NCBI GenBank assembly: GCA_008632985.1
Contig: QPGO01000195.1
Coordinates: 124,001-146,216, forward strand
Length of the DNA: 22,216 bases
Direction: 5' to 3'
From: Psammoneis japonica
Taxonomy: Eukaryota
Positions 1 through 22,216 of the stretch are shown here, piece by piece. Numbering within the stretch: position 1 is the first letter of the stretch; each line of letters opens with the position of its first letter. Both the position numbers and the translations under genes were made by a program. The notes beneath the pieces were generated by a model. The model worked only from the letters and a program-made list of their open reading frames with translations, searched no databases and was not told the origin of the DNA.

Positions 1-828
1 GAAAGTTGCGGGATTTTGGTTCTTGCGAGTTTGTCTCATGCTCAGCAGCCAAAACCTGCTTTTTTTGAATTGCCAGACGGTTGCAGCTGAGCACAGACAA
101 GTTGCCGTTTCTGCAGTTTAAAGGGTGGGATTTCAAAACTGGTGCGTTCCATTTAAATTTTTTGGAACACATCCCATTTTTCGTCTTTGGTCTGTGCAAT
201 TGTTTTGAGCTGTGTCCCTTTTTTTGTTCCTGGAGAATCGCGCACATTGCTGAATGTTGTTCACACAGACATGTGCAGAAATTCATGCGTGAGAACATGG
301 ACATCATTGCCCCTTGCTGGTCTGTTGGCTCTACATTGCAACAACATGTGCACCCTGAGCAATGACATGCCACACTGCGACGTGCAATCTACGTTGACAC
401 CCTGCATGTGCTTGCCATGTGTGCATTTCAGTGCTGTGTCTGCGGCAACAGCCTGCGCTTGCTCTCTTCGCTGAACATGAAATGTCAACCACCCAGCAGC
501 ACACAATCAACGCCGACTGCAGCAGCATCTCTCTCTGTCAACACCGGCCCCATCCTTTGTTTCCATTGGCAATGTCTCCATCTCCATCAAATTTGGCACC
601 AATTGCAAGCACAATGCACTTTGCTGCCTTTGTGCAAGTGCAGCCATGTCTGTGTTGTTGATCAGCCAAATCCTGCTGCAAAATTGTCACTCTTGTTTTT
701 GACAGAAACAGGCACAAGTGCTCACTTGAATTTTGGAATTTCCTGTTCAACAGGAATCCTGCAGCCATTGAAGAAGCAGAGTCACCCGCGCATGCACGAA
801 ACACACAAATTTGTTCTGTCCCAGACAC

Positions 829-1316
829 AAGTCTCTGCCCGCACAACGTGGCACAAACCCGCTCTGTTTGTTGTCGTGCATCGTTGCAACTGCCTTGAAG
901 GTTGTGGCTGCCCTTCCTCAACTGGTGCTCAGGCTGTGCATCCTTCTTGGAGTGCAATCATTGTGATTGACAGGAGAGCTGGGTGCTGTGTCTGTTGGCA
1001 ACCCATCCAGAGAAATTGTTCTCCGTCGCGGATGCAAGTTGCTGCCTTGCAAGTTCCATCCCGGATGCAAGTCTCTGTCCACACGACGCGGCACAACACT
1101 GCTCTGATTGTTGTTGTGCATTGTTCACAACTGCCTTGAAGGTTGTGGCTGCCCTTCCTTTGCTGGTGCTCAGGCTGTGCATCCTTCTTGGAGTTCAATC
1201 ATTGTGATTGACAGGAGAGCTGGGCACTGTGTCATTGTGATTGACAGGAGAGCTGGGCACTGTGTCTGTTGGTGACCTGTCCAGAGACATTGTTCTCCGT
1301 CACGGATGCAAGTTGC
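829..1316 (+). repeat. Tandem duplication (about 829-1042 and 1069-1316); copy 2 has an internal ~33-bp duplication
   Basis: Both copies read AAGTCTCTG...CTGCCTTGAAGGTTGTGGCTGCCCTTCCT...GGATGCAAGTTGC; TCATTGTGATTGACAGGAGAGCTGGGCACTGTG occurs twice at ~1199-1265. Confidence 0.9.
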
Positions 1317-1520
1317 AGTGTGTGTGCAGGCAGCTTGGACTGCTTCATCATCAATCATGTCGGAGGGGAACAAGTCTGTCATGAACATGCAGCAACTGTT
1401 GACCACTGTTGAACAAGTTGCTGCGGGGAGGGAAAATGATGATCCCACCCCTGCTGGAATCAAGCACTTTGTTGAGAGTGACAAGGCACACTTTGCAAGG
1501 AGGGGCACAACCATTCACCC

Positions 1521-2129
1521 TTGGCATTGTTCTGCATTGACTGGGGTGTCAAAAGGTCTCCAGGCTCCAGTGTCTTCTTGTTTGACATCGTGCACCACAG
1601 CAACAAATGTGCAAACAACCTGGAAGACAAAGCGTGGTTTCAAGAGGCCATGACAGATTTCTTTCTTGGCGCTTTCAACGATGACAACTGTTCAGCCATC
1701 CGGCAGCATGTCCAGCACAAACACACACACATGCCAATTGTTTGTGAGCAAAAATCAGCAAAGGAACACGACTGCGACATGTCCAATGGTGTGGTGGCTG
1801 TGCTCCTCTGCCGTTGCTTTCACAACGTTGGAGTTGCGGTTGACTTTGTGCACAAAATCAACCATCCGCGAGAGGATGTCATTGCCAAAAAGTGCAGTGT
1901 GTTTGTCCATTTTTGTTTGGTTTTGCCCAGTCCCTTTGCTTTCATGCAGGCAACAAGTGGGATGCACTGCTTCATTGCCAGGAGAATCTCGTCAAATGCT
2001 GCTCAAAAACAATGGGTTTCCAAGATGAGACGGATGGGCTCCTTGAGGAGGCCCGCTGTGCCGACGCAGAGGCATGGTGAAACTGGAAAGAATTGTCAAA
2101 TCTTGAAAATGACAACTCAAGAGTTTTGA
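1521..2129 (+). pseudogene. Possible decayed coding fragment, function unknown
   Basis: Globular-looking stretch (KAWFQEAMTDFFLGAF...GVVAVLLCRCFHNVGVAVDFV) with no Tyr; no family recognised, and ORF length is uninformative here. Confidence 0.25.
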
Positions 2130-2839
2130 GAATCACAGAACGGGTGCACACCCAGTCGAAGTTGTTTCTGTTGCCGTTTCCCCACGATGAGGATGTTTGC
2201 CAGAACTGCATGAAAAAAACTCCAAACAACAGCGCTGTCTGGAAAAAGGACGATCCTTGATGGTTCAAGGAAACTCTGAAGACCACGAAAGATGCAACAC
2301 ACAGCCAATTCAAAATTGATCTGTTGGAATGGACTGCACAACACAAAACACTCTGCTTTTGTCAGCAAGAGGGAGTTTGCCAAGTTTTGGCGACTGTCGC
2401 TTGGTGAACACATTCACAAAAGTTGTCACAACCATGCAGTCATAAATCAAAGGATCCAAGAGCATGCATGGAAATCAAGGCATTGCAATCTTTGAAGGTC
2501 AGCAGTTGAGTTTTTTTCAAAGAGAACCAATGAAGATGACAAAGGTTGCAAACCACTGGAGTTGGAGCCACATCAAACAGTGGGAGACGATGATGAGTGG
2601 TGTGAACAAATGCCGCATTTTTGCACCCATGTGGAAGAGGGCCCAGTGAGCAAGTCAGCCGGAAAATGCAGCAAGAAGCTTGCAGACGACAACTGCAAAT
2701 GATGCAGGCTTCTCCGCAGTCACTGCCAATGGCGGCACAGTGAATCTGATGCTGACCTGGAAGACACAGCAGCCCATCTCGATTTGGAGAATGACAGCGA
2801 TGTTGCTGGCGTCAACGCCAACAAACCAGAGAGGCCCAG

Positions 2840-4645: not shown

Positions 4646-4654
4646 GTTGCTGTT

Positions 4655-7425
4655 TCACTGGGTCACCCGTCTTAGAACCAAATCTTGGCACAGGTCTCTA
4701 CACTTGGAGTCCACGAATCCCCAACAAATTGATCCATCCGGTGTTTTCCTGCAAAAGCCAACCAAAATGGCTTTGGTCTGATTCACTTGCAACCAACATC
4801 TGTTGGACAACTCTTCACTGGTGATGGTGGCAGCAAAATGATCCTTGCAACCAAATGTTTCCTTGTGCTCAAGCTGGACATGAAGCAGACGGTTGGGCTC
4901 CACTGCAGCTCCAGTTTTGCCCTCTTCTAACTGCGCAATGACTGTTGGTTCTTTGTCATCTTTCCCATCAACAAGAGAAAGAAGATGCTGCCATGTCTTG
5001 CACACACGCAGATCTGGCATCACTTTTTCAATCCAAAACTCTGACGACAATGCGTCAGAGTCCAAAGATTTGTTTTTCTTGCCAGCTGAACTCACGCGGT
5101 CCATTGCAGCAGTGACATTGAACCCTCTGTGCATGTTTTGAGCAAAATTTTTGCTGCATGAATGGAGCTCTCTTTTGGTCTGCTTCAGCGCCTTTTTGTC
5201 TTCCCCTTCCCAACACACTCAAACTGGTCCTTTGTCATGCATGTTGTCAGGAAAAGACAACATGCTAAGAACAGTGTGTCATTCATGCCAGATTGGGGCC
5301 AGATCTTTGCCGTCTTTGCCATGGTTTTGTTGCATTGGTGGATCCAGAGCATCCATGTCATTGAGAAATTGTGCGATGCAAAACCTGAGATGCAGCTCCA
5401 AATCATCTGAACTGAATCCTGCCAGTGCATGCGCGCGCATGTTTGAGGCAGAGTTGAGCATTTTAACAACATCCGACACCTGCAATTTGGCAGATGGCAG
5501 TGTGCCTGGAGGGTTTGTCATGGCCATGTGATCCGCAACATGTTCATGCAGTTCTTCAGCATTGCCCCGTCCAGTGGCAATCCATGCATTTTTGGCCACG
5601 CCTTGTCAAATGGCATGGTCCAACTTGCTTGTTTGTTGACAGGCAGAAACACCACAGGTGGGCCATCTGGTGTTTCAAGTGTTGGGTTGGCAAAGAATTT
5701 AAACAAACGTCCAAATGCAATCCAGCTCTTGCATTTGAATCCAGCAAAACTGTTCTTTGTAAAGGGGCGCACATTCAACCAAGGAAGTCACAGTGTTTCA
5801 CAACAGTGTCACATCTGGTTCATCAGTGAGGACTCTACAATCCGCTCCCATCACCTGGGTGAGCAGCAAGCCAAACCCATGGCCTTTGCGGTGTTGCCAA
5901 GTCCATGCATTGGTGCCTCCTGCCGCTGGTCAGGAGGTGTCCCACTGAACCAAATGGGAGGCATTTGATGCACGCAGCATTTCTCAGGATGACATTCACG
6001 ATCAAGCAAAAGCACTTCCAACAATTCTGGATTTTGATTGGGTTCATCTTGCAACACTTTCAACAGATTGCAGTTGTTGGCATTTTCTAAAATGCCAGAA
6101 ACAAGTTGTGTGTTCACACTGCAACAATCACCAAGATGAGCTTCGCCCTCCGCCATGGTCCACTGGCTCTGACAGACATTTGTGTGCGTTTTAATTGCAG
6201 CATTTTGGAGAAATTTGTGCACCCATTTGAAAGGAGGGAGAACCAATTTACCACCAAGTTTGCTGAGTGGAAAGTTGGCAGAAGGGGGGGGGTGTGCAGC
6301 AAAGGATTGGAAGCATCAACAGACCAGTTGGTGCACAATCCAAATGGACATGTCAAGTCTGCAATCGTTTGAAAGCCATTGACAAGGGTTTCTTCAATGC
6401 GTTTGTGACAGTGGATGCAAGATGCAAGATGACACCCAACTTTCTTGATGTTCAACACATGGCCGAACAATGCATGATTGGTTTTCATGCCAAATTTCAT
6501 TCCAGTGATTGCGCGTTTTTCCGGTTGGTCTCCAGATCGCAGCCAGACATCTGCGATGGGCTTCATTGATTTGCCAGCGCTGCCAAAAAACATGGGTGGC
6601 ACCTGCCCAGTTTGAAGAAGGTGAATTTTCCTTTCAACCTCAGACACAACCACATCATGATTTGCACCTTTGGGCCCAAGTGCAACAAGAAAGCAGTTGT
6701 TGAACTCGCCAAGGTCGGCTGCGATCACACTTGAGTCATCAGGGAACAAAGGTCCATGATGTGGTTGGCAAAGAAACCCAATGTGGCAAGCCCAAGAGCC
6801 ATTGACATTGGATGCAATGAGGCTCGCGGCAGGGTTAAAATTGTCAGAAAAGGTTTCAAAGGCTGTGACAAGCAATGGACAATCAGTGTGTTCATCATTG
6901 CTCCAAATTGAAATGGAAGTGTCATAAATTTCCTCAACCCGATGACACTGTCTTGCATGGACAACCGGTTGATTTTCTTGAAACAAACCATTTTTGTCAG
7001 CGGCTTCACACAGATTTTCCAGGCCGGCTCCAAATGCCAAAAAGTTGTGCAACGAGTCAATCACACTGCAATGGGAGTGTGTGTTTTTGCCAGAGCCGAG
7101 TGTTTGCATTGGCACCAAGGGCGCCGTGTGTGTTGCAAACATGTGTGGGTGTGGTGGGCAGAACAAACCAAAAGTGATCCAGACTCTCATTTCTTTCCCC
7201 CACCAGCATGGCGGGTTCCAACCATCTGAACAAGTCCAGCAACATGTGCTGCTGTGGCTCGTGCAGGGACAACATTAACTTGCCCAGCAACAAGTGAACG
7301 TCAGCATCCTCGTCTGAAATTTTTTCTGCAAATTGTGCGTTGTCAAACAAATTCTTGGCAAGCAGGCAACGTTTTTTGCTGCCCAATTGTTGGCAGCAAA
7401 AAAAGGATCGGAACAAGTGTGTCAA
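4655..7425 (-). pseudogene. Decayed DDE transposase, CACTA/EnSpm (tnp2)- or Plavaka-like
   Basis: Collinear minus-strand motifs across frameshifts: FSDNFNP...NGSW, LVALGPKGANHDVV, SGDQPEKR, CIHC, EAPMHGLG, DNMHDKGPV*VCWEG; these match the recalled order D, DxP, (D/E)xMH, GPxxxW. Confidence 0.6.
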
Positions 7426-7455
7426 ATGGAGAGCAACCGATCAGCGATCTTGAAG

Positions 7456-8060
7456 TTGCGGACCCCTGCCTGGGTGTCACTCTGAGGGTGTTCTTGGCAG
7501 CCGTCAGACCAATGTTCCACCTCTTGGAGAGCATCTCTGGCGTGACAGTCAATGCACGACTCAAGGTCAACAGTGCATGCACCCCTTTCCACTTGGCACA
7601 ATCCAGGTGGACGTCCAGATTGTTCCGTTCATGTGGCCGGTCTCCCCCAGTGTCATTGTGAGATGCACTGGCCTGAGCAGCCAAGCAGTGATGCAGAGAA
7701 TCATCGTCATTTGCACCCACAATGACGCTCTCATTGTGATGGGATGTCTGACACGAACAAGCCAAAGCAATGCACCTGGTTGCACTCATCATTGTCACCC
7801 TGATTTTCAAGTCGGGGAAAACAACAGAGTGCGCACTGTTGGGATCAAACTGGCGAGGGGTGTCGTGGACAGTCAGCTCACTTGCTCACAGTTGGCTGGG
7901 GCACAGCAGGGTGCCAGTCATTCTTTCCCTGAAAAACATAGCCTCGTGGGCTGGCAGTGGGCGTGGCTGTCCATTGGCTAGATCAACCCACATGGCAGCA
8001 GCCATGCAAATGGGGACATTCCTCATTGGTGCACACTCTTCGGAGCAAGGATGCACTGCA
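7456..8060 (-). mobile_element. Internally deleted copia pol fragment (protease to pre-integrase)
   Basis: 7456-7796 aligns to ~11017-11358 (LSKRWNIGLTAA); 7797-8045 aligns to ~11554-11805 (HEAMFF...LLCP); about 200 bp missing between them. Confidence 0.9.
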
Positions 8061-8061
8061 G

Positions 8062-8673
8062 CCCGAGACTTCAGGCAGTGTTGAAGAGAATGGGCATGCA
8101 GGCAGCGCATGGTGTGCTGAAACCAGAAGAGGAGAAGGTGGCTGGAAATGATCTCTTTCCACAGGTGAAGTTTCTCAGCCCGTCAGAATTGGCAAGCAAT
8201 GGGAGCATCTCAATGTTTGTCAAGAAACAGATTGCTGGTGGCAACATGGACACTTCAAATTGGTCAGGAACTTGGGAGGAATGGGCAAAAAAGGTGGCAA
8301 AAAGGCAAGTTGACAATCTCAGAAACACGGTGTGTTTGGCTGTTGGGGCGGAGGCAATGGCCCGCAAGTTGGGTGACCAATGTGTGTGACTCGAGAGTTG
8401 CGCGCATCTCACAAGAAGATGACGGTGATGCTTTGTCTGTGCAGGCATTGTCACCAAGGAAGAGGGAAAGGAAAAAGAAAAGAAACTCAAGGCGGCAGTC
8501 AAGAGGAAAAAGCAAGGCAGGAACAAGTCAAGCCATGACAAGAATGAAAAGAAAGACATCCCGATTGTGCTGACATGGGATCCGCCCAGCCCAGACACTG
8601 TCGCCGGCAGCAAATGAAGGAACAAGCAGGCACGCAAGCGGTTCTGTGATCACACCCCTGTTTGCAAAAATTG
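8062..8673 (+). pseudogene. Decayed gene of unknown function, copy A (probable intron 8364-8444)
   Basis: GNDLFPQVKFLSPSEL...WEEWAKKVAKRQVDNLRN, a Lys-rich tract and KRFCDH, with an in-frame TGA; near-identical to 15150-15761. Confidence 0.5.
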
Positions 8674-8920
8674 ACAAACCAAGGATTGTGTGGCAATGCA
8701 ATCACAGATTGGCACATGGCAACAAGGTGGAGGCAGAAATGGCGATGTGGACACAGTGAAAAATGGCACACATGATTCTCAACAAGTTGTTGTGACATTG
8801 GCACAGCAAACTTGCAACCAGAGGTTGGCCTGTCATTGTGCGACAACAATTTTTTGCAACATTTTGACAAATTGTCATCATGCAAATCCACACATTTTTA
8901 ACATTTCGTGCACTCTGATG

Positions 8921-9784
8921 CGTGTGTTGTGCACAGCATCATCACACAGCATTTGTCCAACTCTCCCTCTCATTGCAGGATGGGTTGTCGCCATGTGGCG
9001 CATCTGCACAGTGGACTTGCGAATTTGACCATGCACTCCCTCTGTCAGGCAGGATGGGTTGGTGCCATGTGGCGCATCCGGCCAAGGGAGGAGTGGGTTC
9101 GAAGCCCAGCCGCCCACCCCGGATGGGGTTGGAAAGGGGCAGGCCGAGAAAGAAAAGGAGGCTTGGATTTGAGGCCAATTCGAGCCAGTGACCTCAGGAA
9201 GCACAAAGACTCACAACCACTCAGAACGCTGCACACTGTCCTGGCGAGTGCAGGAGGTTCTCAACAACCCAAGAGGCAAAGAAGTTGCCACTCGGCTGGC
9301 TGTTGAGTCCCTTCTCCGCGCACACATTTGGGCGTGTGTTGTGCACAGCATTGTCACACAAAATTTGTCCAACTCTCCCTCTCGTTGCAGGGTGGGTTGT
9401 CACCATGTGGCGCATCCGCACGGAGGACTCATGAATTTGACCATGCACTCCCCATGTTGGGCAGGATGGGCCAGCGCCATGTGGCGCATCCGGCCAAGGG
9501 AGGAGCGGGCTCGAAGCCCAGCCGCCCACCCCGGATGGGGTTGGAAAGGGGCAGGCTGAGAAAGAAAAGGAGGCTTGGATTTGAGGCCGATTCAAGCCAG
9601 CGACCTCAGGAAGCGCAAAGACTCACAACCACTCCGAACACTGCACACTGTCCTGGCGAGTGCAGGAGGTTCTCAACAACCCAAGAGGCAAAGAAGTTGC
9701 CACTCAGCCAGCTGTTGAGCCCCTTCTCCACACACACATTCAGGCATGTGTTGTGCACAGCATCATCACACAGCATTTGTCCAA
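8921..9784 (+). repeat. ~410-420-bp repeat: two tandem units plus the start of a third; further copies at ~16008-16125 (partial) and ~19549-20002
   Basis: TGTGTTGTGCACAGCAT..TCACACA..ATTTGTCCAACT recurs at ~8923, 9335 and 9746; each unit holds GGG(T/C)TCGAAGCCC and CCACCCCGGATGGGGTTGG. Confidence 0.9.
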
Positions 9785-9786
9785 CT

Positions 9787-10450
9787 GAACATGTCCTTTC
9801 AAGGAAAACAAGCATGTTTTCCTTGAAAAGACATGTTGTTTTCCTTAAAAAGACATGTTTGTTTTCAGGACATGTTGTTTTCATTGAAAAGACATGTTTG
9901 TTTTCCTTGAAACCACATGTTCGTCTTCCTTGAAACAACACGTTTGTTTTCCTTGAAAAGACACATTTTTTTTCCTTGAAACAACATGTTTGTTTTCCTT
10001 GAAAAGACATGTTTGTTTTCCTTGAAACGACATGTTTGTTTTCCTTGAAAAGATGTGTTTGTTTTCCCTGAAAAGACACATTTGTTTTCCTTGAAAACAC
10101 ATGTTTGTTTTCCTTGAAACAACGTGCTTGTTTTCCTTGAAAAGACATGTTTGTTTTCCTTAAAAAGACATGTTTGTTTTCAAGACATGTTTGTTTTCAT
10201 TGAAAAGACATGTTTGTTTTCCTTGAAACCACATGTTTGTTTTCCCTGAAACGACGTGTTTGTTTTCTTTGAAATGACATGTTTGTTTTCCTTGAAATGA
10301 CATGTTTGTTTTCATTGAAAAGACATGTTTGTTTTCCTTGAAAAGACATGTTTGTTTTCCTTGAAACGACATGTTTGTTTTCCTTGAAAAGAAATTTTTT
10401 TCCCCTTGAAACGACATGTTTGTTTTCCTTGAAAAGACATGTTTGTTTTC
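9787..10450 (+). repeat. 23-bp satellite array 1, consensus TTTTCCTTGAAA(A/C)GACATGTTTG
   Basis: Direct 23-bp periodicity. Confidence 0.97.
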
Positions 10451-11429
10451 ACCAATCAAAGAGAGAGAGGGAAGAGATGTCGGGTGTTGAACCTGTCACC
10501 TCCTCTTCTGGGACTCGTCCTCCCATGTCTGACACACTGGTTGCAATCATGCGTCGGATGTCACATGCCCATTTGGCGCTGTGGGACCAAAGTCGTCTGT
10601 GAGCGCCAGTCCAGCGCAGAGTCACACGGACTCTTTTCTTCAACTCACGAATGGATGCCTCGGCCAGGTTCTGCCAGGGGCTGCATGGAGTGGACACCTC
10701 CTGGTGCATCCTGCATTCCTTGCAGATCTCCTTGGTCTGGCCTTCCACCATTTCTGGCACGCCATCTGACACAAGGACCTGCGGTGTGCCAACGTCATGC
10801 ACAAATGACATGACGGCATCTGGGTGGTCCTGTTTCCTCTTCCAAGGATGGAGCCTGTCACACCCTCTTCCGTTGGCAAGTGCGCTTCCTCCCATCTTGC
10901 CATGTGTCGATTTGACCTTTGAAAACATCTGGTTGGAGTAGAGTCGTCCCTTGACAGCAGGGAACTTGAGCCAAGGGGCTTTCTTCCGGACTTTCCGTTC
11001 GGATGGTGTGCAGACATTGCGGACCCCTGCCTGGGTCATCACTCTGATGGTGTTCTCAGCAGCCGTCAGGCCAATGTTCCACCTTTTAGAGAGTGTCTTG
11101 GGCGTGACAGTTGATGCACGACTCAAGGTTGACAGTGCATGCACCCGCTTCCGCTCGGCACAATCCAGGTGGACATCCAGGTCATGCCAGTCGTGTGGCC
11201 CATCTCCCTTGGTGTCGTTGTGGGAGACATTTGCCTGAGCAACCATGCGGCGATGCAATGAATTGTCGTCATCAGTGTCCACAATGACGCTCTCGTCATG
11301 ACAGGACATTTGGTGTGAATGAATGGAAGCAACACACCTGGTCACATTCATTGTCGTCGACCATCCACCCGACTTTGCCGATCCTTGGCGCACACTGGCA
11401 CATGCACGTGCTTCCTCCTTTTGCGCCAT
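10449..11429 (-). pseudogene. pol: Copia integrase region (rve core)
   Basis: LSKRWNIGL, LYSNQMFSKVKS, FVHDVGTPQVLVSDG, PCSPWQNLAEASIRELKK, VTGSTPDIS..LFDW; first catalytic Asp appears as Asn; ends at the satellite junction. Confidence 0.92.
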
Positions 11430-11943
11430 GGCATCAGCAGAAGGCTCTCATCTCGGGGGTGATGTGAGCTCCAGCCGGGGGAGGTTCTCCAGATCCTCAT
11501 TTGTTGGCTCGTGTGAATCAAAGACAGAAGCAACGCCTCTTGTTCACAGTGGCACCCTGATCTTCAAGTCAGGGAAAGCAATGGAGTGCGCGCCAGTCGG
11601 ATCAAACTGGCAAGGGGGTGTCGTGGACAATCAGCCCATTTGCTCGCAGTTGGTTGGGGCACAGAAGGGTGTTGGTCATCTTGTCCCCAAAAAACATGGC
11701 CTCGTGGACTGGCAGCAAGCACGGTTGTCCATCAGTTGGATCAACCCACACCGCAGCAGCCACGCAAACAGGAGTGTTTTCCATTGGCGCGTGCTCTTCG
11801 GAGTGGGGGTGCACCACGACAGTTCTGTCGATGTCAGAGCACATCACAAAATTGGACCCAACAGCACACGTGTCAGTGTGCGAGTCTAAATCAGTGGTGG
11901 CTTCATCATCTGAATTTCCAGCAGATGACAAAGAGACACGCAC
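11430..11943 (-). pseudogene. pol: Copia aspartic protease region, frameshifted near 11610
   Basis: LDSHTDTCAVGSN, HEAMFFGDKMTNTLLCPNQLRANG; continues in another frame as QFDPTGAHSI...LPRLELTS. Confidence 0.88.
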
Positions 11944-12030
11944 ATCCTTTGAGAATCACCCAGACAAACAAACAGTGCCAGCAGGTTTAGCAACATTTGG
12001 TTCTGTGCCTTTCAGTGCTGGCGCAACTGT

Positions 12031-13218
12031 TCATTCCTCATTCTGAGGTTTCTCATGTGCGCTGCATCCAAACTGGGTGCCTGCATTGGCGGCAGGTTCA
12101 TCAGGCTCGTCGGAGTCTTTCGGTGCATCAGCAGGTTGAGCAGCAGGCTCGGCAACAGCTGCTTTCTTTACAGCAAGAGTTTCGGCATCAACCGACTCAG
12201 CTTCCAAGGACACAGCAGCAGCTTTGCATTTCTTTTTGGCCTTCTTGGCGTCGCGGAGCTTTTGGACTTGCTCTCACTCGGGACCGTCAAGAGCACTCCG
12301 GTCGGAGATGCCCTTCAGAAAGTCAGAGACCTTCTTGGTCTCGGCCACCAGTTCATCAAGCTCAGACAAGTCGTTGTGAGCCTTTTGATGACGCTGAATG
12401 TGCTGGTCAAATGCAAATCGACCCCGTCCGGTGCACTTCGCGGCAGCAATCTGTGCATGAGCATGGTTCTTTTGGGGGGGGGTGGTGGCGGCTGATCCTT
12501 CCGCCTGCCTCTCAAGTGCAAAGAAAGCAGTGCGACCATCGCGGCTGCGATTGGAAGGTTTGACAAAAGCCCATCCGGGCCCCCCCATCACTGACTTCTT
12601 CAGGAGATCATGCAGTCGTTGCCTGTCCTGCGCATGCTGAGCGCCCGCAAGGCGGGTGGCAGCAATGAGGTCCTCGTCAATGGCAGCGCAGGTGGCAGCC
12701 AACATCTCGGCGGTGACTTCCTCATGTTCCCCAGCTGGACAGATGAGGGGAACTCCGGCAACGGTGCTGCGGTGGTGGCGCAGTTCGGTCTCCAGCAACT
12801 CTTGGAAGGTGGGCCAGCTGTGTGGGTTCTTGAGCTCCACGGCCGTTTTGGCAGCCAATTCGTCGTCCGAGTCGGCGGACTTGAATTGCTCCAGTTCCAT
12901 CAGACGTGCCGCCCATGTTCCAACAACGTCGCCAGCGAAGAGAGCAGCAGTCGGCTGTTGGTTCCGGGCTCTGCGGCAGTCAATCCATGCGTGCAGTGCC
13001 TTGAGCTTTCGATTCGCCAGGTGTGGAAAGCGGACTTGAGGGCTGGCAGCGGCACCCACGCTTTTCATGGTGCCCTTCGTCATGTCGGCAATTTCAGTCA
13101 AAGGGACCTGCTCCAGGTCCTCGACAGCAGTGAAGCCTTGACGGGCCATGTGGGTGCGCGTCTGTGCACTGTGCCCACAACGCGCAAGACAGGCAGCAAA
13201 GGCTGCAGCAGCGGCCAT
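12031..13218 (-). pseudogene. gag: Copia gag, premature TGA at ~12274
   Basis: FPHLANRKLKALHAWIDCR, GVPLIC, GPGWAFVK...DGRTAFFAL, CTGRGRFAFDQHIQRHQKAHNDL, ETKKVSDFLKGISD; lies between LTR and protease. Confidence 0.85.
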
Positions 13219-13746
13219 GGCGCATCAGCAGTTGTTCGCGTTTCGATGCGTGAGCATCCACTTGTGTGAGTGGAGGAAAGTGAGAAAAATGCATGGCTCT
13301 CGTGCCGATTTGGCGGTTTCTGCTTGGCGAACCCATGAGCAGGCAGTGTTGCCCCCAAGCGACAATGTCCAACAGACATGCATCCACATGTGCAGCGTCC
13401 AAACAATTTGATGATGCACTTTGATTGATGAGATGTGTGTGGTCAAATGACAGACAGCGCACAAATCATTGTGTTGTCTTCATCACGAATGTTTGCGTGT
13501 CTCAGCCGACATGTTCCATCCACATGATCAAACATTTCGTGTGATGACGTCATGTCTGACGGATCACAGCTCTGGTCTCCAAGAGCATGTTGTTCATGTC
13601 CATGAATGTTGACACACACAAAGGACTCAGCAATTGCGCAAGCAACCATGGGACCAACATGGCGCTTGCCACAAAAATCAATTGATCACAACGATGCCGT
13701 CACACCGTTTGCAATGCCCGTTCCAGGCGATGAACATCACAGCGCA

Positions 13747-13945: not shown

Positions 13946-14345
13946 AAACGACATGTTTGTTTTCCTTGAAACAACATGTTTGTTTTCAATGAAAAGACAC
14001 GTTTGTTTTCCTTGAAAAGACACATTTGTTTTCCTTGAAATGACATGTTTGTTTTCCTTGAAACGACATGTTTGTTTTCCTTGAAAAGACATGTTTGTTT
14101 TCCTTGAAACAAAATGTTTGTTTTCCTTGAAAAGACATGTTTGTTTTCCTTGAAACGACACACTTGTTTTCCCAGAAAAGACATGGTTGTTTTCATTGAA
14201 ACCACATGTTTGTTTTCCTTGAAACGCCGCATTTGTTTTCCTTGAAAAGACATTTTTTTCCCTTGAAGCGACATGTTTGTTTTCCTTGAAACGACGTGTT
14301 TGTTTTCCTTGAAAAGACATGTTTGTTTTCAAGACATGTTTGTTT
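13946..14345 (+). repeat. 23-bp satellite array 2
   Basis: Direct 23-bp periodicity starting immediately after the LTR. Confidence 0.97.
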
Positions 14346-14810
14346 GACCTTGACATTGAAGTCTTCTCTGCAGACAGGCCCAAGTCCCGCTCTGGGTTTC
14401 AACTCACCTTGCGCGTGCAAAAGCACCCTGATTTTCAAGTCAGGGAAAACAACAGAGTGTGCGCTGTTGGGGTCAAACTGGCGAGGGGTGTTGTGGACAG
14501 TTGGCTCACTTGCTCACAGTTGGCTGGGGCACAGCAGGGTGTCAGTCATTCTTTCCCTGAAAAACACAGCCTCGTGGGCTGGCAGTGGGCACGGCTGTCC
14601 ATTGGCTGGATCAACCCACATGGCAGCAGCCACGCAAATGGGGACATTCCTCATTGGCGCGCACTCTTCGGAGCAAGGATGCACTGCAGCAGCGTGGTTG
14701 CTGACAACAATTTGTTCAATGTTGTGGAGAAAAATGGAGTGGCTGGCTGTCTCAACATGACCCAAATGATGGCTGCACTTCGAACAGCAATGCTCCTCTC
14801 ATTGTTGCTG

Positions 14811-15067
14811 GCCTGTTCCAGCTCCAGGTGCTCTGCTTTTCATCACGCGAGAGGCCCATTTTCTGCGCAGTTTGGCGCAATTGACTCCTTCAATTTTGAT
14901 CGTTTCGAAAATCGAAAGGTGAGTGTACACCCGAAAATGCATGTAAAGTGCACACTCACCCTTTGATTTGGCAAAAAACGGATTTGGAAAAGTCAATTGC
15001 GCCAAATGCACAAATTTCCAAATGATGGGAATCGAACCCGCGCGGAGCACCTGGAGCTGGAACAGGC
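14811..15067. mobile_element. 257-bp MITE with 23-bp perfect TIRs and CTG target duplication; PIF/Harbinger (Tourist)-like
   Basis: GCCTGTTCCAGCTCCAGGTGCTC (14811-14833) is the reverse complement of 15045-15067; CTG on both flanks; internal inverted repeats. Confidence 0.75.
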
Positions 15068-15149
15068 CTGCTGTGAAAAGATCAAGATGTCGTCTCCAGC
15101 ACCACCGGCAAAGAAAGAGAAAGAAAAATGAGACTGTTGAGCCAATGAG

Positions 15150-15761
15150 CCTGAGACTTCAGGCAGTGTTGAAGAGAATGGGCATGCAGGCAGCGCATGG
15201 TGCGCTGAAACCAGAAGTGGAGAAGGTGGCTGGAAATGATCTCTTTTCACAGGTGAAGTTTCTCAGTCCATCAGAATTGGCAAGCAATGGGAGCGTCTCA
15301 ATGTTTGTCAAGAAACAGATTGCTGGTGAAAACGTGGACACTTCAAATTGGTCAGGAGCTTGGGAGGAATGGGCAAAAGAGGCGGCAAAAAGGCAAGTTG
15401 ACAATCTCAGAAACACGGTGTGTTCGGCTGTTGGGGCGGAGGCAATGGCCCGCAAGTTGGGTGACCAATGTGTGTGACTCGAGAGTTGCGCGCATCTCGC
15501 AAGAAGATGACATTGATGCTTTGTCTGTGCAGGCGTTGTTGCCAAGGAAGAGGGAAAGGAAAAGAAAAGAAACTCAAGGCGGCAGTCAAGAGGAAAAAGC
15601 AAGGCAGGAAAAAGTCAAGCCGTGACAAGAACGAAAAGAAAGACGTCCCGATTGTGCCGACATGGGATCCGCTTGGCCCAGACACTGTCGCTGGCAGCAA
15701 ACAAAGGAACAAGCAGGCACACAAGCGGTTCTGTGATCACACCCCTGTTTGCAAAAATTGA
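15150..15761 (+). pseudogene. Decayed gene of unknown function, copy B
   Basis: GNDLFSQVKFLSPSEL...AHKRFCDH; paralog of 8062-8673. Confidence 0.5.
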
Positions 15762-16125
15762 CAAACCAAGGATTGTGCGGCAATGCAATCATGGATTGGC
15801 ACATGGCAACAAGGTGGAGGCAGAAATGGCGATGTGGGCACAGTGAAAAATGGCACACAAGATTCTCAACGAGTTGTTGTGACATTGGCGCAGCAAACTT
15901 GCAACCAGAGGTTGGCCTGTCATTGTGCGACAACAATTTTTTGCAACATTTTGACAAGTTGCCATCACGCAAATCCACACATTTTTAACGTTTCGTGCAC
16001 TCTGATGCGTGTGTTGCGCACAGCATCATCGCACAGCATTTGTCCAACTCTCCCTCTCATTGCAGGATGGGTTGTCGCCATGTGGCGCATCTGCACAGCG
16101 GACTTGCGAATTTGACCATGCACTC

Positions 16126-16348
16126 CGTCTGACGCGTTCCAGGTCTAGGTGGGACCTCGCACTGCTGAACTGTGACATCGACAGTTTTTTGAGTCTCGTC
16201 GTATGTCGCGCACGTAGATTTCTACGTGATTTTTTCGACATTTTGTGTCATTTTACGGTGCACTTATTGAGCGATCCGTCCAACAACTTTTGACATTTTT
16301 TGTTACAGCGCGATTCTACAATGTCTTAAGAATCGCGCAGGGCAGGCG
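16126..16348. other. TpA- and CpG-retaining, palindrome-rich island; possible end of a young element
   Basis: Nine TpA in ~220 bp; inverted repeats 16211-16218/16221-16228 and 16308-16317/16329-16338. Confidence 0.7.
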
Positions 16349-16657
16349 NNNNNNNNNNNNNNNNNNNNNNNNNNNNNNNNNNNNNNNNNNNNNNNNNNNN
16401 NNNNNNNNNNNNNNNNNNNNNNNNNNNNNNNNNNNNNNNNNNNNNNNNNNNNNNNNNNNNNNNNNNNNNNNNNNNNNNNNNNNNNNNNNNNNNNNNNNNN
16501 NNNNNNNNNNNNNNNNNNNNNNNNNNNNNNNNNNNNNNNNNNNNNNNNNNNNNNNNNNNNNNNNNNNNNNNNNNNNNNNNNNNNNNNNNNNNNNNNNNNN
16601 NNNNNNNNNNNNNNNNNNNNNNNNNNNNNNNNNNNNNNNNNNNNNNNNNNNNNNNNN
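16349..16657. other. Assembly gap (309 N)
   Basis: Run of N. Confidence 1.
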
Positions 16658-18618
16658 GACATGTTTGTTTTCAAGACATGTTTGGTTTCCTTGAAAAGAC
16701 ATGTTTGTTTTCCCTGAAACCACATGTTTGGTTTCCTTGAAAAGACATGTTTGTTTTCCCTGAAACCACATGTTTGTTTTCCTTGAAAAGACATGTTTGA
16801 TTTCCTTGAAACGACAAGTTTGTTTTCCTTGAAACCACATGTTTGTTTTCCTTGAAATGACACGTTTGTTTTCCTTGAAATGACATGTGTGTTTTCCTTA
16901 AAAAGACATGTTTGTTTTCCTTGAAACAACATGTTTGTTTTCCTTGAAACGACATGTTTGTTTTCCTTGAAACCACATGTTTGTTTTCCTTGAAAACACA
17001 TGTTTGTTTTCCTTGAAACGACATGTTTGTTTTCATTGAAAAGACATGTTTGATTTCCTTGAAACCACATGTTTGTTTTCCTTGAAACCACATGTTTGTT
17101 TTCCTTGAAACCACATGTTTGTTTTCCTTGAAACGACATGTTTGTTTTCATTGAAAAAACATGTTTGATTTTCTTGAAACAACATGTTTGTTTTCCTTGA
17201 AACGACATGTTTGATTTCCTTGAAAAGAGACATTTGTTTTCCTTGAAACAACATGTTTGTTTTCCTTGAAACGACATGTTTGTTTTCCTTGAAAAGACAC
17301 ATTTGTTTTCCTTGAAACAACATGTTTGTTTTCCTTGAAATGGCGCATTTGTTTTCCTTGAAACGACATGTTTGTTTTCCTTGAAAACACACAATTGTTT
17401 TCCTTGAAACAACATGATTGTTTTCCTTGAAATGGCATGTTTGTTTTCTTCGAAACGACGTGTTTATTTTCCTTGAAACGACATGTTTGTTTTCCTTGAA
17501 AAGACATGTTTGTTTTCCTTGAAACCACATGTTTGTTTTCCTTGAAACGCCGTGATTTTTTTCCTTGAAAAGACATTTTTTTCCCTTGAAGCGACATGTT
17601 TGTTTTCCTTGAAACGACATGTTTGTTTTCCTTGAAAAGACATGTTTGACATGTTTGTTTTCCCTGAAACCACATGTTTGGTTTCCTTGAAAAGACATGT
17701 TTGTTTTCCCTGAAACCACATGTTTGTTTTCCTTGAAAAGACATGTTTGATTTCCTTGAAACGACAAGTTTGTTTTCCTTGAAACCACATGTTTGTTTTC
17801 CTTGAAATGACACGTTTGTTTTCCTTGAAATGACATGTTTGTTTTCCTTAAAAAGACATGTTTGTTTTCCTTGAAACAACATGTTTGTTTTCCTTGAAAC
17901 CACATGTTTGTTTTCCTTAAAATGACACGTTTGTTTTCCTTGAAAACACATGTTTGTTTTCCTTGAAACGACATGTTTGTTTTCATTGAAAAGACATGTT
18001 TGTTTTCCTTGAAAAGACATGTTTGTTTTCCTTGAAAAGACATGTTTGTTTTCTTTGAAATGACATGTTTGTTTTCCTTGAAACGACATGTTTGTTTTCA
18101 TTGAAAAGACATGTTTGATTTCCCTGAAACGACATGTTTGTTTTCCTTGAAACGACATGTTTGTTTTCCTTGAAAAGACACATTTGTTTTCCTTGAAACA
18201 ACATGTTTGTTTTCCTTGAAATGGCGTGTTTGTTTTCCTTGAAACGACATGTTTGTTTTCCTTGAAACCACATGTTTGTTTTCCTTGAAATGACACGTTT
18301 GTTTTCCTTGAAACGACACGTTTGTTTTCATTGAAAAGACATGTTTGTTTTCTTTGAAACGAAATGTTTGTTTTCCTTGAAACGAAATGTTTGTTTTCCT
18401 TGAAAAGACATGTTTGTTTTCCTTGAAACGACACACTTGTTTTCCCAGAAAAGACATGGTTGTTTTCATTGAAACCACATGTTTGTTTTCCTTGAAACGC
18501 CGTGATTTTTTTCCTTGAAAAGACATTTTTTTCCCTTGAAGCGACATGTTTGTTTTCCTTGAAACGACATGTTTGTTTTCCTTGAAAAGACATGTTTGTC
18601 TTCAAGACATGTTTGTTT
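16658..18618 (+). repeat. 23-bp satellite array 3 with higher-order duplication
   Basis: 23-bp periodicity; the variant series at ~16658-16940 recurs at ~17648-17890. Confidence 0.97.
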
Positions 18619-20003
18619 GACCTTGACATTGAAGTCTTCTCTGCAGACAGGCCCAAGTCCCGCTCTGGCACTCAACTCACCTTGCGCGCGCAAAAGCACC
18701 CTGATTTTCAAGTCAGGGAAAACAACAGAGTGTGCGCTGTTGGGGTCAAACTGGCGAGGGGTGTCGTGGACAGTTGGCTCACTTGCTCACAGTTGGCTGG
18801 GGCACAGCAGGGTGTCAGTCATTCTTTCCCTGAAAAACACAGCCTCGTGGGCTGGCAGTGGCGTGGCTGTCCATTGGCTGGATCAACCCACATGGCAGCA
18901 GCCAACGCAAATGGGGACATTCCTCATTGGCGCGCACTCTTCGGAGCAAGGATGCACTGCAGCAGCGTGGTTGTTGACAACAATTGTTTCAATGTTGTGG
19001 AGAAAAATGGAGTGCTGCTGTCTCAACACGACCCAAATGACGGCTGCACTGTCAAACAGCAATGCTCCTCTCATTGTTGCTGGCATGTTCCAGCTCCAGG
19101 TGCTCTGCTTTTCATCACGCGAGAGGCCCATTTTCTGCGCAGTTTAGCGCAATTGACTCCTTCAATTTTGATCGTTTCGAAAATCGAAAGGTGAGTGTGC
19201 ACCCGAAAATGCATGTAAAGTGCACACTCACCCTTTGATTTGGCAAAAAACGGATTTGGAAAAAGTCAATTGCGCCAAATGCACAAATTTCCAAATGATG
19301 GGAATCGAACCCGCGCGGCGGCAATGCAATCATGGGTTGGCACATGGCAACAAGGTGGAGGCAGAAATGGCGATGTGGGCACAGTGAAAAATGGCGCACA
19401 TGATTCTCAACAAGTTGTCGCGACATTGGCACAGCAAACTTGCAACCAGAGGTTGGCCTGTCATTGTGCGACAACAATTTTTTGCAACATTTTGACAAAT
19501 TGCCATCATGCAAATCCACACATTTTTAACGTTTCGTGCACTCTGATGTGTGTGTTGTGCACAGCATCATCGCACAGCATTTGTCCAACTCTCCCTCTCA
19601 TCGCAGGATGGGTTGTCGCCATGTGGTGCATCTGCACAGTGGACTTGCAAATTTGACCATGCACTCCCTCTGTCAGGCAGGATGGGGCTGGTGCCATGTG
19701 GCGCATCCGGCCAAGGGAGGAGTGGGTTCGAAGCCCAGCCGCCCACCCCGGATGGGGTTGGAAAGGGGCAGGCCGAGAAAGAAAAGGAGGCTTGGATTTG
19801 AGGCCGATTCAAGCCAGCGACCTCAGGAAGCGCAAAGACTCACAACCACTCAGAACACTGCACACTGTCCTGGCAAGTGCAGGAGGTTCTCAACAACCCA
19901 AGAGGCAAAGAAGTTGCCACTCGGCCAGCTGTTGAGCCCCTTCTCCGCACACACATTCAGGCATGTGTTGTGCACAGCATCGTCACACAGCATTTGTCCA
20001 ACT
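18619..20003 (+). repeat. Composite block copy C: protease fragment (18698-18963), MITE missing most of its right TIR (~19083-19318), ~730-bp deletion, 420-bp repeat
   Basis: Matches 14346-15045, then jumps to the equivalent of ~15778 at GCGG. Confidence 0.9.
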
Positions 20004-21553
20004 GAACATGTCATGAAAAGACATGTTTGTTTTCCTTAGAAACACACATTTGTTTTCCTTGAAAAGACATGTTTGTTTTCCTTGAGACGACATGTTTGTT
20101 TTCCTTGAAAAGACATGTTTGTTTTCTTTGAAATGACATGTTTGTTTTCCCTGAAACGACATGTTTGTTTTCCTTGAAACCACATGTTTGTTTTCCTTGA
20201 AAACACATGTTTGTTTTGTCTGAAACGACATGTTTGTTTTCCTTGAAAAGACATGTTTGTTTTCCTTGAAACCACATGTTTGTTTTCCATGAAACCACAT
20301 GTTCGTTTTCCTTGAAAAGACATGTTTGTTTTCTTTGAAACAACGTGTTTGTTTTTCTTGAAAAGACATGTTTGTTTTTCTTGAAAGAACATGTTTGTTT
20401 TCTGTGAAACCACATGTTTGTTTTCCCTGAAACGACATGTTTGTTTTCCTTGAAAGGACACGTTTGTTTTTCTTGAAAAGACATGTTCGTTTTCCTTGAA
20501 AAGACATGCTTGTTTTCCGTGAAACAACATGTTTGTTTTCCTTGAAACCACATGTTTGTTTTTCTTGAAAACACATGTTTGTTTTCCCTGAAACAACATG
20601 TTTGTTTTCCTTGAAATGACATGTTTGCTTTCTTTGAAAAGACACCTTTGTTTTCCTTGAAAACACATGTTTGTTTTCCTTGAAACCACGTGTTTGTTTT
20701 CCTTGAAAAGACACGTTTGTTTTCCATAAAACAACATGTTTGTTTTCCTTGAAACAACACGTTTGTTTTCCTTGAAAACACATGCTTGTTTTCCTTAAAA
20801 CAACATGTTTGTTTTCCTTGAAAAAACATGTTTGTTTTCCTTGAAACAACACGTTTGTTTTCCATGAAACGACATGTTTGTTTTCCTTGAAACCACGTGT
20901 TTGTTTTCCTTGAAAACACATGTTTGTTTTCCTTGAAACGACATGTTTGTTTTCCTTGAAATGACATGTTTGTTTTTGTTGAAAAGACATGTTTGTTTTC
21001 CTTGAAAAGACACACTTGTTTTCTTTGAAACGAAACGTTTGTTTTCCTTGAAATGGCACGTTTGTTTTCAAGACATGTTTGTTTTCCTTGAAACGACATG
21101 TTTGTTTTCCTTGAAAAGACATGTTTGTTTTCCTTGAAATGACATGTTTGTTTTCTTTGAAAAGAAATGTTTGTTTTCTTTGAAAAGACATGTTTGTTTT
21201 CCTTGAAACCACATGTTTGTTTTCCTTGAAACAACACGTTTCTTTTCCTTGAAGAGACATGTTTGTTTTCTTTGAAATGACATGTTTGTTTTTCTTGAAA
21301 ATGCACATTTGTTTTCCTTGAAAAGACGTGATTGTTTTCCCTGAAACCACATGTTTGTTTTCCCTGAAATGACACATTTGTTTTCCTTGAAAAGACATGT
21401 TTGTTTTCTTTGAAAAAACATGTTTGTTTTCCTTGAAAAGACGTGTTTTTTTTCTTGAAAAGACATGTTTGTTTTCCCTGAAACACATGTTTGTTTTCCC
21501 TTGAAACCACGTGTTTGTTTTCTTTGAAAACACATGTTTGTTTTCCTTGAAAC
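20004..21553 (+). repeat. 23-bp satellite array 4
   Basis: 23-bp periodicity; ends CCTTGAAAC at the LTR. Confidence 0.97.
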
Positions 21554-21739
21554 TGACCAAACACTGCCGTGACAGCTGAGAATTGGGTGCAAGACAAGAC
21601 AGAGATCGTTGAACAGCATCAACAGGTTCTAGAATTGCGGGATGTTGTGCTGCCAGGGCCGCTGACTGAGCAACAGTGAACCAATCGCCAATGGCACACA
21701 AACTGCCTGTGTTTGTGACAGCACATCAGCATTCATTCA
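21554..21739 (-). repeat. 3' LTR (186 bp, TGA...TCA) of a second copia copy
   Basis: Matches 13762-13945; preceded on the minus strand by a PPT and RNase H. Confidence 0.9.
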
Positions 21740-21748
21740 GTCCCCTTG
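21740..21748 (-). promoter_or_regulatory. Polypurine tract
   Basis: Minus strand CAAGGGGAC directly before the LTR's TG. Confidence 0.8.
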
Positions 21749-21890
21749 AACTGACGCTGGCTCCGCTTGGGTCAGATCGACAGACAAATGCAACCTGATG
21801 CTGCCCCATTCCAGGGCAGCAGCCACATTGTGGGGGTGGGAAGTGCCGCACCTGCGCGGCAAACCCGTTTGGTTTGTCCCCTTTTGGGGC

Positions 21891-22216
21891 TCACCACAGG
21901 ACGTGACTTGTGATTTCCCGGAGCTTCGGTCCAGGCAACAACTTGGTCAGTGCGTCTGCCAGATTCGTGCGCCCGTCTTCCCAAGCAATGCGCGCTGTTC
22001 CAGCGGCTTGTGCCTCGCAAGTCCTGTGACAGGTGGATGCATTGTGCTTCTTCTTCAAAGTGGACTCCGGTTTGGTTGAGTTCTTGAAGACAGCTTCATT
22101 GTTGCAGAAAACATCAGTGGCCCCATCCATGGGGATTCTGAGCATCCGAAGCTTGCAGCGCAAGGCTTCGATTTGCTCCACTGCAGTCTTCACAGCCATG
22201 AACTCGACCCAAAAGC
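21891..22216 (-). pseudogene. pol: Copia RNase H C-terminus, running off the window
   Basis: EALRCKLRM..IPMDG..VFCNNEAV..NST.PESTLKKKHN...HR..EAQAAG...NLADALTK. Confidence 0.95.

Follow-up and report, generated by a model that had tools for sequence, protein, structure and literature searches.

The stretch of DNA analysed here, 22,216 nt in length and referred to throughout as the window, appears to come from the nuclear genome of a eukaryote, from a part that is rich in repeats and probably silenced. It contains the remains, seemingly dead, of an rve-type DDE transposon and a Ty1/copia element, together with a foldback element, dispersed repeats and 23-bp satellites (Table 1). The open frame P0002 has 155 relatives at E ≤ 1e-3, the best at 1.4e-83; its own match to the Pfam rve family is sub-threshold (E 0.024), PF00665 is precomputed in 19 of the 120 relatives listed, and the family profile matches retroviral integrase cores with E from 9e-4 to 9e-3. 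P0124 has 2376 relatives at E ≤ 1e-3 and aligns to the last ~100 residues of proteins of 1281-1429 aa. RVT_2 was found in all three of the long relatives scanned, with rve upstream of it in one of the three, and by this homology P0124 fits a Ty1/copia LTR retrotransposon polyprotein, of which the last 107 residues alone lie in the window.

Table 1. Features of the window; positions are counted from its first letter.
Feature	Position	Strand	Basis or property
TpA-depleted, CpA/TpG-enriched tract	1..22216	.	TpA O/E 0.04
Longest open frame P0001, 386 aa; Tyr 0.26%, Cys 5.4%, His 5.7%	6117..7274	-	
Second copy of transposase N-terminal part, truncated	7456..7732	-	81% identical to 11017-11294
Dispersed repeat unit, including a 412-bp tandem (2.1 copies, 8920-9786)	8060..9786	.	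self-BLAST 95%, TRF
Further copies of the dispersed repeat unit	15148-16131, 19320-20003		each adjoins a satellite array
23-bp satellite array, 28 copies	9815..10450	.	Tandem Repeats Finder
Degenerate rve-like DDE transposase ORF P0002, 332 aa, Tyr 0.3%	10452..11447	-	homologues
Open frame P0003, 316 aa, Tyr zero	12277..13224	-	
23-bp satellite array, 17 copies	13946..14330	.	Tandem Repeats Finder
Segmental duplicate of 18227-19318, 96%	13954..15045	.	self-BLAST
Nested foldback (MITE-like) element	14807-15071		30-nt arms 93% complementary, plus two inner pairs
TA-normal, CpG-rich island	16132..16348	.	TpA O/E 0.62, CpG O/E 1.63
Assembly gap, 309 N	16349..16657	.	
23-bp satellite array, 84 copies, begins right after the gap	16675..18603	.	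Tandem Repeats Finder
23-bp satellite array, 67 copies, also with a 69-bp higher-order period	20014..21553	.	Tandem Repeats Finder
Ty1/copia-type polyprotein C-terminal fragment P0124, 107 aa, cut by the window end	21894..22214	-	homologues

For P0001 there was no Pfam match and no homologue among proteins of 212-676 aa, and for P0003 no credible Pfam match and no homologue among proteins of 173-553 aa. No viral gene was recognised in the window, which has no match in viral_contigs. Its only TA-normal DNA is an island of 217 nt; outside this island neither host genes nor clearly unique DNA are present.

The whole of this DNA is nearly devoid of TpA. Over the 21,907 called bases we counted 61 TpA where about 1530 are expected (O/E 0.04; frequency 0.0028), that is, about 96% of the TA dinucleotides are gone, to TG or CA. 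CpA (2182, O/E 1.75) and TpG (2330, O/E 1.61) are in excess, as a preliminary description of the sequence had noticed, and CpG stands at 664 (O/E 0.56). The values for ApA (1.38), TpT (1.46), ApT (0.76) and ApG (0.90) speak against any general drive from A/T to G/C. In 1-kb bins the TpA O/E is at most 0.10 everywhere but at 16001-17000, where it is 0.26, or 0.18 after an N-aware recount. The satellites are not the source of the depletion, since with the arrays and the TA-normal island excluded 43 TpA are left in 17,170 nt and the O/E is still 0.04. Non-coding DNA is depleted as strongly as the rest, and so, to the same degree, is the region 1-7400 (~7 kb), which has no second copy inside the window. 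The estimates made earlier by eye were accurate: about 30 TpA had been given for positions 1-8000 and our recount yields 29, while the TpA-free run placed at ~391 to 2442 is exact, with one TpA at 390 and the next at 2443. Tyrosine, described as nearly absent from all six frames, accounts for 5, 6, 5, 3, 1 and 8 codons per frame, each of ~7300 codons, against 413-468 Cys and 337-365 His codons per frame.

Not all of the TG and CA excess comes from TpA. CpG decay is real and accounts for part of it: the TG+CA excess of 1780 compares with deficits of 1473 for TA and 546 for CG, and between copies that are 95-96% identical, 123 of 337 mismatches are of the CpG↔TpG/CpA type and only 7 of the TA↔TG/CA type. 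Because almost no TpA substrate remains, there is no sign of ongoing TA loss between copies. Double differences of the TG↔CA type (40 in 11 pairs of paralogues) are ambiguous; of the eight found between the two transposase copies, four have outgroup residues that point to a CpG ancestor and two have residues that point to a TpA ancestor, the remaining two being uninformative. The CpG decay is consistent with methylation.

Could the scarcity of TpA be native composition, or have been produced by selection against TpA/UpA (avoidance of stop codons or of RNase), or by CpG deamination alone? The CpG decay just described would lend the last of these some weight, as it explains part of the TG/CA excess, but it cannot remove TpA, and the relatives of the elements are normal in both Tyr and TpA. 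Tyr makes up at least 1% (median 3.8%) of all 120 listed transposase relatives, against 0-0.3% in three window ORFs, and the DNA of two transposase relatives has TpA O/E of 0.75 and 0.65. Conserved tyrosines, moreover, have been replaced. At the 10 columns where the relatives have a majority of Tyr, P0002 has His four times, Cys three times, Leu twice and Tyr once, and P0124 has Cys at both of its two such columns (Tyr in 98 of 133 and 117 of 149 relatives). Tyr to Cys/His is seen in all seven pairwise comparisons and the opposite change in none; replacements of the TA-loss type outnumber their reverses in each (9:4, 8:3, 20:11, 18:5, 19:9, 13:5 and 21:9). T preceded the A in only 5 of 7 first-position A→G replacements and in 16 of 43 control cases, a difference that is not significant. 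The genes have been left dead, P0002 having Asn where its relatives carry the first conserved Asp (column 172, at least 90% conserved), and non-coding DNA is depleted equally. TA is the ancestral state, and we give almost no weight to a compositional or selective origin or to CpG deamination alone; these comparisons mark the depletion as a historical mutation.

The same residues speak to the level at which the process acted. Tyr→His four times and Tyr→Cys three times within one ORF bear out the earlier remark that TG and CA outcomes occur within single copies. Both outcomes in one ORF, and loss of TA that the homologues point to in a DNA transposon and a retroelement alike, argue for a process that acted on DNA and on both strands; the Tyr columns, the relatives and the asymmetry of replacements thus uphold the view first put forward, of a DNA-level, strand-symmetric change of TpA to TpG/CpA on mobile-element DNA. 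We suggest a context-specific transition on the DNA itself, TpA→TpG, which would be read as TpA→CpA on the opposite strand. The claim that all repeat classes were hit holds by homology for the DNA transposon and the retroelement, while the MITE-like foldback and the 23-bp satellite are TpA-poor and have no outgroup. Neither of these two can be polarised that way, and the 23-nt unit could have been TA-free from the outset.

A similar pattern might be thought to arise if element RNA in double-stranded form were hyperedited from A to I by an ADAR-type enzyme and the edited copies were then reverse-transcribed and integrated, as ADAR favours a 5' U and works on the two strands of a duplex alike (Discussion of Mettrop et al., bioRxiv 10.64898/2026.01.13.699255), and one of the affected elements is a retrotransposon. 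However, the DDE DNA transposon, the non-coding spacers, the dispersed repeats and indeed the whole 22 kb are equally depleted, and a completeness of 96% over adjoining unrelated elements is not expected from the editing of single transcripts, so that we regard this route as highly improbable. Editing by ADAR or APOBEC of animal retroelements is alike in being deaminase hypermutation against selfish nucleic acids, with ADAR favouring 5' U, but the target of ADAR is RNA and the APOBEC change is C→T/G→A, whereas the window shows A→G/T→C at TpA, and shows it in non-coding DNA and a DNA transposon.

Selfish DNA is known to be mutated in a programmed way by fungal RIP (C→T) and by animal deaminases. 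RIP acts mostly at CpA, creates TpA and lowers GC. In outcome it is like what we see, in that repeated or mobile DNA is permanently inactivated by dinucleotide-specific transitions that fall on both strands, but the sign is opposite: the window loses TpA (0.04) and gains CpA (1.75) and TpG (1.61), GC rises, and the RIP signature of raised TpA/ApT with lowered (CpA+TpG)/(ApC+GpT) is therefore absent. A Y-family polymerase making errors while repairing methylated or damaged heterochromatin (Pol eta-type WA→WG, one of the candidates first named) would produce A→G after T, and the CpG decay of the tract is consistent with methylation. But WA includes ApA, which is in excess, and ApG is not enriched (1.38 and 0.90), so that TpA alone was lost and not WA; moreover, all GC-biased mutations in the hypermutable regions of Bigelowiella natans, 230 of 231 mutations, are at TpA (10.64898/2026.01.13.699255). 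We consider such repair a most improbable source.

An artefact of sequencing or assembly is very unlikely as well, as is a lasting modification of TpA bases that is read as G in a genome that is truly TA, even though an assembly gap lies inside the tract. An island of normal TpA occurs in the same scaffold, 52 TpA survive elsewhere in the tract, and the three surviving sites that we compared across paralogous copies have the same flanking sequence in each copy (for example 8899, 15986 and 19527). The TG and CA states vary from paralogue to paralogue. Further copia fragments with Tyr→Cys/His are found in a public protein library, though they may stem from the same assembly, and in independent B. 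natans lines sequenced by Illumina the same class of mutation was called as fixed (10.64898/2026.01.13.699255).

The preliminary description knew of no account of such a process; the 2026 preprint, however, observes the same signature in real time. In mutation-accumulation lines of the marine alga B. natans, TpA→TpG/CpA hypermutation strikes integrated viral and other foreign DNA, with 230 of the 231 mutations in hypermutable regions being A→G or T→C at TpA and with the rate in some lines raised to about 1e-7 to 1e-6 per site and generation (Mettrop et al., 10.64898/2026.01.13.699255). It further reports 124 TpA-depleted clusters and a class of low-TpA coding sequences, with TpA at a mean frequency of 0.0018, in which DDE and reverse-transcriptase domains are over-represented. 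The window is like these regions in the dinucleotide, the two outcomes and the strand symmetry, in being TpA-poor and CpA+TpG-rich, and in the link to DDE and reverse-transcriptase elements; both orientations occur in one region, none was reversed in our seven comparisons, and the targets, an rve-type DDE transposase and a Ty1/copia fragment, are of foreign origin. By the cut-offs that the preprint gives for TpA-depleted clusters, 21 of the 23 1-kb bins of the window pass (10.64898/2026.01.13.699255), the two failing bins having Rho_TpA of 0.03 and 0.02 and Rho_CpA+TpG of 1.48 and 1.43. The active regions in B. natans, however, are viral inserts that still hold TpA (NCLDV Rho 0.45; virophage region 9.2% TpA), whereas the window is near saturation (0.04) and consists of transposons and satellite. 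From the preprint's figures, 211 mutations/(3132 generations × 6169 TpA) gives ~1.1e-5 per TpA per generation, and by our own arithmetic a fall in O/E from ~0.7 to 0.04 at this B. natans rate would need ~2.6e5 generations. The window would seem to be an end-state example of these clusters, produced by what may well be the same process. The NCLDV target in B. natans is single-copy (10.64898/2026.01.13.699255), in contrast to RIP, which depends on duplication and on a sexual phase.

Which chemistry could remove TpA in this way? The natural substrate of ADAT2/ADAT3 and of TadA is A34, preceded by U33, a 5'-U/T-A context that the window shares. An adenine after T would be deaminated (A→I) and copied as G, by an ADAT2/TadA-family deaminase that may be directed to foreign or silent DNA. 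No such enzyme is encoded in the window or linked to it. The preprint proposes by inference an ADAT/TadA-type deaminase and an analogy to RIP, names the ADAT2 homologue Bn78255 as a candidate and cites DNA activity of amphioxus BjADAT2 (10.64898/2026.01.13.699255). Chemistry on the thymine side would have the same TG and CA outcomes, TpA being self-complementary: if a TET/JBP-like enzyme oxidised the T of TpA to 5-hydroxymethyl- or 5-formyl-uracil, mispairing of the product with G would give T→C, and at a palindromic dinucleotide the sequence cannot separate this from A→G. 5-Formyluracil does mispair with G, and some protists place modified thymine preferentially at TpA. The window, however, carries no sign of such a modification or enzyme, and deamination is the reading favoured in the preprint, by inference too (10.64898/2026.01.13.699255); we think the thymine route unlikely. 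Overall, it seems to us probable that a TpA-specific transition, by the same process as in B. natans and through adenine deamination of the ADAT2/TadA type, drove this repeat tract almost free of TpA.

The TpA that survive are concentrated in TTAA, with a 3' A enriched 2.6-fold and a 3' T depleted 5-fold. This bias fits none of the deaminase preferences with which we compared it; TTAA may be a poor substrate. The island, for its part, has 9 TpA in 218 scored positions (one of them N), where ~0.5 would be expected at the density of the tract. It interrupts a repeat copy, the homology to other repeat copies ending at 16131, abuts the assembly gap, and has no second copy within the window. Decay of CpG through cytosine methylation may have run parallel to TpA loss in the same tract. 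The TTAA-rich survivors, the co-located CpG decay and the satellites are not found in the main text of the preprint, and the near-saturation, the concentration of survivors in TTAA, the CpG decay in the same tract and the TA-normal 217-nt island are possibly new. More tentatively, and with some doubt on our part, TpA hypermutation might reach beyond integrated viruses as a general RIP-like system on repeats or heterochromatin, with near-total TpA loss in transposons and perhaps satellites, sparing TTAA, acting in the same chromatin as CpG (5mC) decay, stopping sharply at element borders as at the island, and perhaps existing outside the one alga described.

The first report of an adenine- or thymine-side counterpart of RIP, erasing one dinucleotide, dates from 2026. 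A saturated tract shows the end state of such TpA loss, ties it to CpG decay and offers a possible substrate rule, namely that TTAA survives while TA followed by T vanishes. There is also a practical consequence for annotation. The + strand holds 32 TAA, 13 TAG and 565 TGA triplets; with almost no TAA/TAG stops and almost no Tyr, such tracts yield long false ORFs, and their transposon genes escape Pfam: of 99 ORFs scanned, none reached a curated cut-off.

Our analysis of the window indicates that TpA has been almost completely lost from it: we count 61 TpA where about 1530 are expected from base composition, an observed/expected ratio (O/E) of 0.04. The ratio does not exceed 0.10 in any 1-kb bin but one, that with the assembly gap, and it is still 0.04 once the satellite arrays and a TA-normal island are excluded (43 TpA in 17,170 nt). 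The preliminary description had put about 30 TpA in positions 1-8000 and none from about 391 to 2442; we count 29 in the first interval, and the TpA at 390 is followed by the next at 2443. None of the remaining A/T dinucleotides is depleted (O/E of 1.38 for ApA, 1.46 for TpT and 0.76 for ApT), so the effect is specific to TpA. The excess of TG and CA that had been described is also there, with O/E of 1.75 for CpA and 1.61 for TpG, and CpG stands at 0.56. A mass balance fits a TG/CA pool that is fed by two processes, TA loss and CG loss, with a TG+CA excess of 1780 against deficits of 1473 in TA and 546 in CG. Tyr, said to be nearly absent from all six frames, has 1-8 codons per frame in about 7300, compared with 413-468 for Cys and 337-365 for His. 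The stop triplets TAA (32) and TAG (13) are scarce in comparison with TGA (565), which leaves long open frames in every frame, so that ORF length alone means little here.

Could the elements in this tract have been poor in TA from the start, by native composition or through selection? This explanation is contradicted by the polarisation of Tyr codons, in which a change of TAY to CAY gives His and a change to TGY gives Cys. When the degenerate rve-like DDE transposase ORF (P0002) is aligned with 22 relatives, the window copy has His at four of the 10 majority-Tyr columns, Cys at three, Leu at two and Tyr at one; His and Cys thus both occur in one transposase gene, in keeping with the earlier claim that TG and CA outcomes both occur within single copies. 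The copia fragment (P0124) has Cys at both of its majority-Tyr columns, at which Tyr is found in 98 of 133 and in 117 of 149 relatives. In seven closest-relative pairs, replacements explicable by a single TA to TG or CA change exceed the reverse ones every time (9:4, 8:3, 20:11, 18:5, 19:9, 13:5 and 21:9), the excess being individually significant in two of the seven only, and these comparisons contain no case of Cys or His changing to Tyr. Moreover, Tyr makes up at least 1% of all 120 listed transposase relatives (median 3.8%), against 0-0.3% in three window ORFs, and TpA O/E is 0.75 and 0.65 in the DNA of two transposase relatives from metagenomes. The polarisation, together with normal Tyr and TpA in the relatives, clearly points to element families that are not natively TA-poor and to a window copy that has been mutated. 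First-position A to G changes after T, considered as a further line of evidence, gave a trend only.

Our results show that the process acts on DNA, as strand-symmetric transitions specific to TpA. RNA editing followed by reverse transcription, already set aside in the preliminary description, cannot explain the pattern because the DNA transposon and non-coding DNA are affected as well. A Pol eta-type process turning WA into WG, which that description had listed among its candidates, is disfavoured since ApA is not lost. The leading idea, which we infer, is adenine deamination by an ADAT/TadA-type enzyme aimed at silent or foreign DNA: A would be deaminated to I and then read as G. A thymine-side route, in which oxidised T pairs wrongly with G, would leave an identical pattern, since the palindromic nature of TpA makes its outcome indistinguishable from that of adenine deamination.

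The TpA that survive offer some indication of what the process prefers. Outside the island, 20 of 52 lie in TTAA, compared with 19 of 477 in the DNA of relatives (odds ratio 15, p 3e-12), and with both strands considered, the position 3' of the target A holds A 2.6 times more commonly, and T five times more rarely, among survivors than in the baseline. These survivors suggest that TTAA would be a poor substrate. At least three survivor sites, e.g. 8899, 15986 and 19527, occur in matching flanks across paralogous copies, and such recurrent sites look old, not like fresh back-mutations. Survivors in which TA is followed by T are almost absent.

The island covers 217 nt (16132-16348), with nine TpA, a TpA O/E of 0.62 and a CpG O/E of 1.63, and runs into a gap of 309 N. 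Its start coincides exactly with the point, at 16131/16132, beyond which the other copies of the repeat unit are no longer homologous. Possible origins are a young insertion, DNA that was not targeted, or a mis-join in the assembly. If the island is real, the depletion has a sharp edge, which counts against a platform-wide artefact, and we consider an artefact of sequencing or assembly unlikely.

How do the repeat copies differ from one another? Across 11 repeat pairs we find 337 mismatches, 282 of them transitions; 123 are exchanges of CpG with TpG or CpA, and only seven are exchanges of TpA with TpG or CpA. This spectrum implies that recent divergence has been driven by CpG decay and that TpA had already been lost when the 95-96% identical copies arose. 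The CpG changes between copies suggest cytosine methylation of the TpA-depleted tract. Adjacent TG/CA double differences, of which there are 40 between paralogues, were considered as proof of ancestral TpA, but they are ambiguous, since a CpG ancestor gives an equal pattern, and we leave them out of the evidence. For the eight doublets in the transposase pair, outgroup residues indicate a CpG ancestor in four and TpA in two and are silent in two (CpG at four of six informative doublets). By region, CpG O/E is 0.37-0.48 over 1-10 kb and 0.55-0.73 over 10-22 kb.

While the preliminary description knew of no account of such a process, TpA-specific hypermutation has already been reported, for Bigelowiella natans (Mettrop et al., bioRxiv 10.64898/2026.01.13.699255); full-text literature searches for TpA-specific hypermutation returned no other description. 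According to this preprint, 231 of 302 nuclear mutations in mutation-accumulation lines fell in two regions, one an integrated giant virus and the other a virophage, 230 of the 231 were A to G or T to C, all at TpA, and the region-specific mutations were restricted to some lines. The same text describes 124 clusters of 1-kb windows with TpA depletion and CpA+TpG enrichment, and a low-TpA class of 324 CDS (mean TpA frequency 0.0018, against 0.0028 in our window) in which domains of DDE endonucleases and reverse transcriptases are over-represented; its authors name an ADAT2-like deaminase as candidate and also draw the analogy with RIP. By the cut-offs found there for such clusters, 21 of our 23 bins qualify. 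From the figures in that text we compute a per-generation rate of 211/(3132 x 6169), or about 1.1e-5 changes for each TpA, at which a fall in TpA O/E from 0.7 to 0.04 would by our own calculation take about 2.6e5 generations, which is short on an evolutionary scale. The window is a saturated new case of the kind described in 2026, its signature real, extreme and mechanistically unexplained, and it contributes three points that can be tested, namely that TTAA survives, that CpG decays alongside and that the border is sharp.

The tract is composed of repeats (see table), with satellite arrays interspersed with dispersed units whose copies are 95-96% identical. Over 8060-21733 the succession of a dispersed unit and then a 23-bp satellite array is repeated three to four times, so that a large part of the right half consists of a segmentally duplicated block. 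A satellite dimer pattern had no match in metagenome_contigs, and tRNA and Rfam scans of the window gave no hit. The foldback element at 14807-15071 has outer arms of 30 nt with 93% complementarity, inside which lie two further pairs of arms, and two of its few TpA lie inside or beside the central loop.

Repeats and coding remnants located in the window
Feature	Positions	Strand	Remarks
23-bp satellite array	9815-10450
23-bp satellite array	13946-14330
23-bp satellite array	16675-18603
23-bp satellite array	20014-21553
Dispersed-unit pair	8060-9044 / 15148-16131
Dispersed-unit pair	8692-9374 / 19320-20003
Dispersed-unit pair	13954-15045 / 18227-19318
412-bp tandem	8920-9786
Nested foldback element, MITE-like	14807-15071		copy near 19080-19344
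Transposase ORF	10452-11447	-	155 relatives, best E 1.4e-83, 51-60% identity
Truncated second transposase copy	7456-7732
Copia fragment	21894-22214	-	last 107 codons before window end; matches C-termini of 1281-1429-aa proteins

None of 99 stop-to-stop ORFs of at least 90 aa scored above the Pfam cut-offs, and the elements were recognised by homology searches where Pfam gave no family. Among the relatives of the transposase, two bear the name 'transposase' at source and a third that of 'IS30 family transposase', while Pfam rve is present in nineteen of the 120 listed; the family profile matches retroviral integrase cores weakly, and a search of viral_contigs with the transposase returned no relative. 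At residue 172 the window copy has Asn where the family shows its first highly conserved column of Asp, so that, its Tyr losses aside, this gene has probably lost catalytic activity, the conserved Asp being presumably catalytic. Near-length homologue searches with two long Tyr-poor frames, P0001 (6117-7274) and P0003 (12277-13224), found no relatives. An open frame at 1482-2126 (+) shows by eye a His ... Gln-x-x-x-x-x-x-Asp-Cys pattern, which has no Pfam support and resembles the Ulp1/C48-type cysteine peptidases borne by some transposons. The three long relatives of the copia fragment that were scanned carry RVT_2, in one case with rve ahead of it, a domain order that is the Ty1/copia arrangement. 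Of the 150 copia-type relatives that match best in the public protein library, 22 show Cys or His at either or both of the conserved Tyr columns; overall Tyr content is at most 1% in thirteen of those 22, so that further TpA-eroded copia fragments exist.
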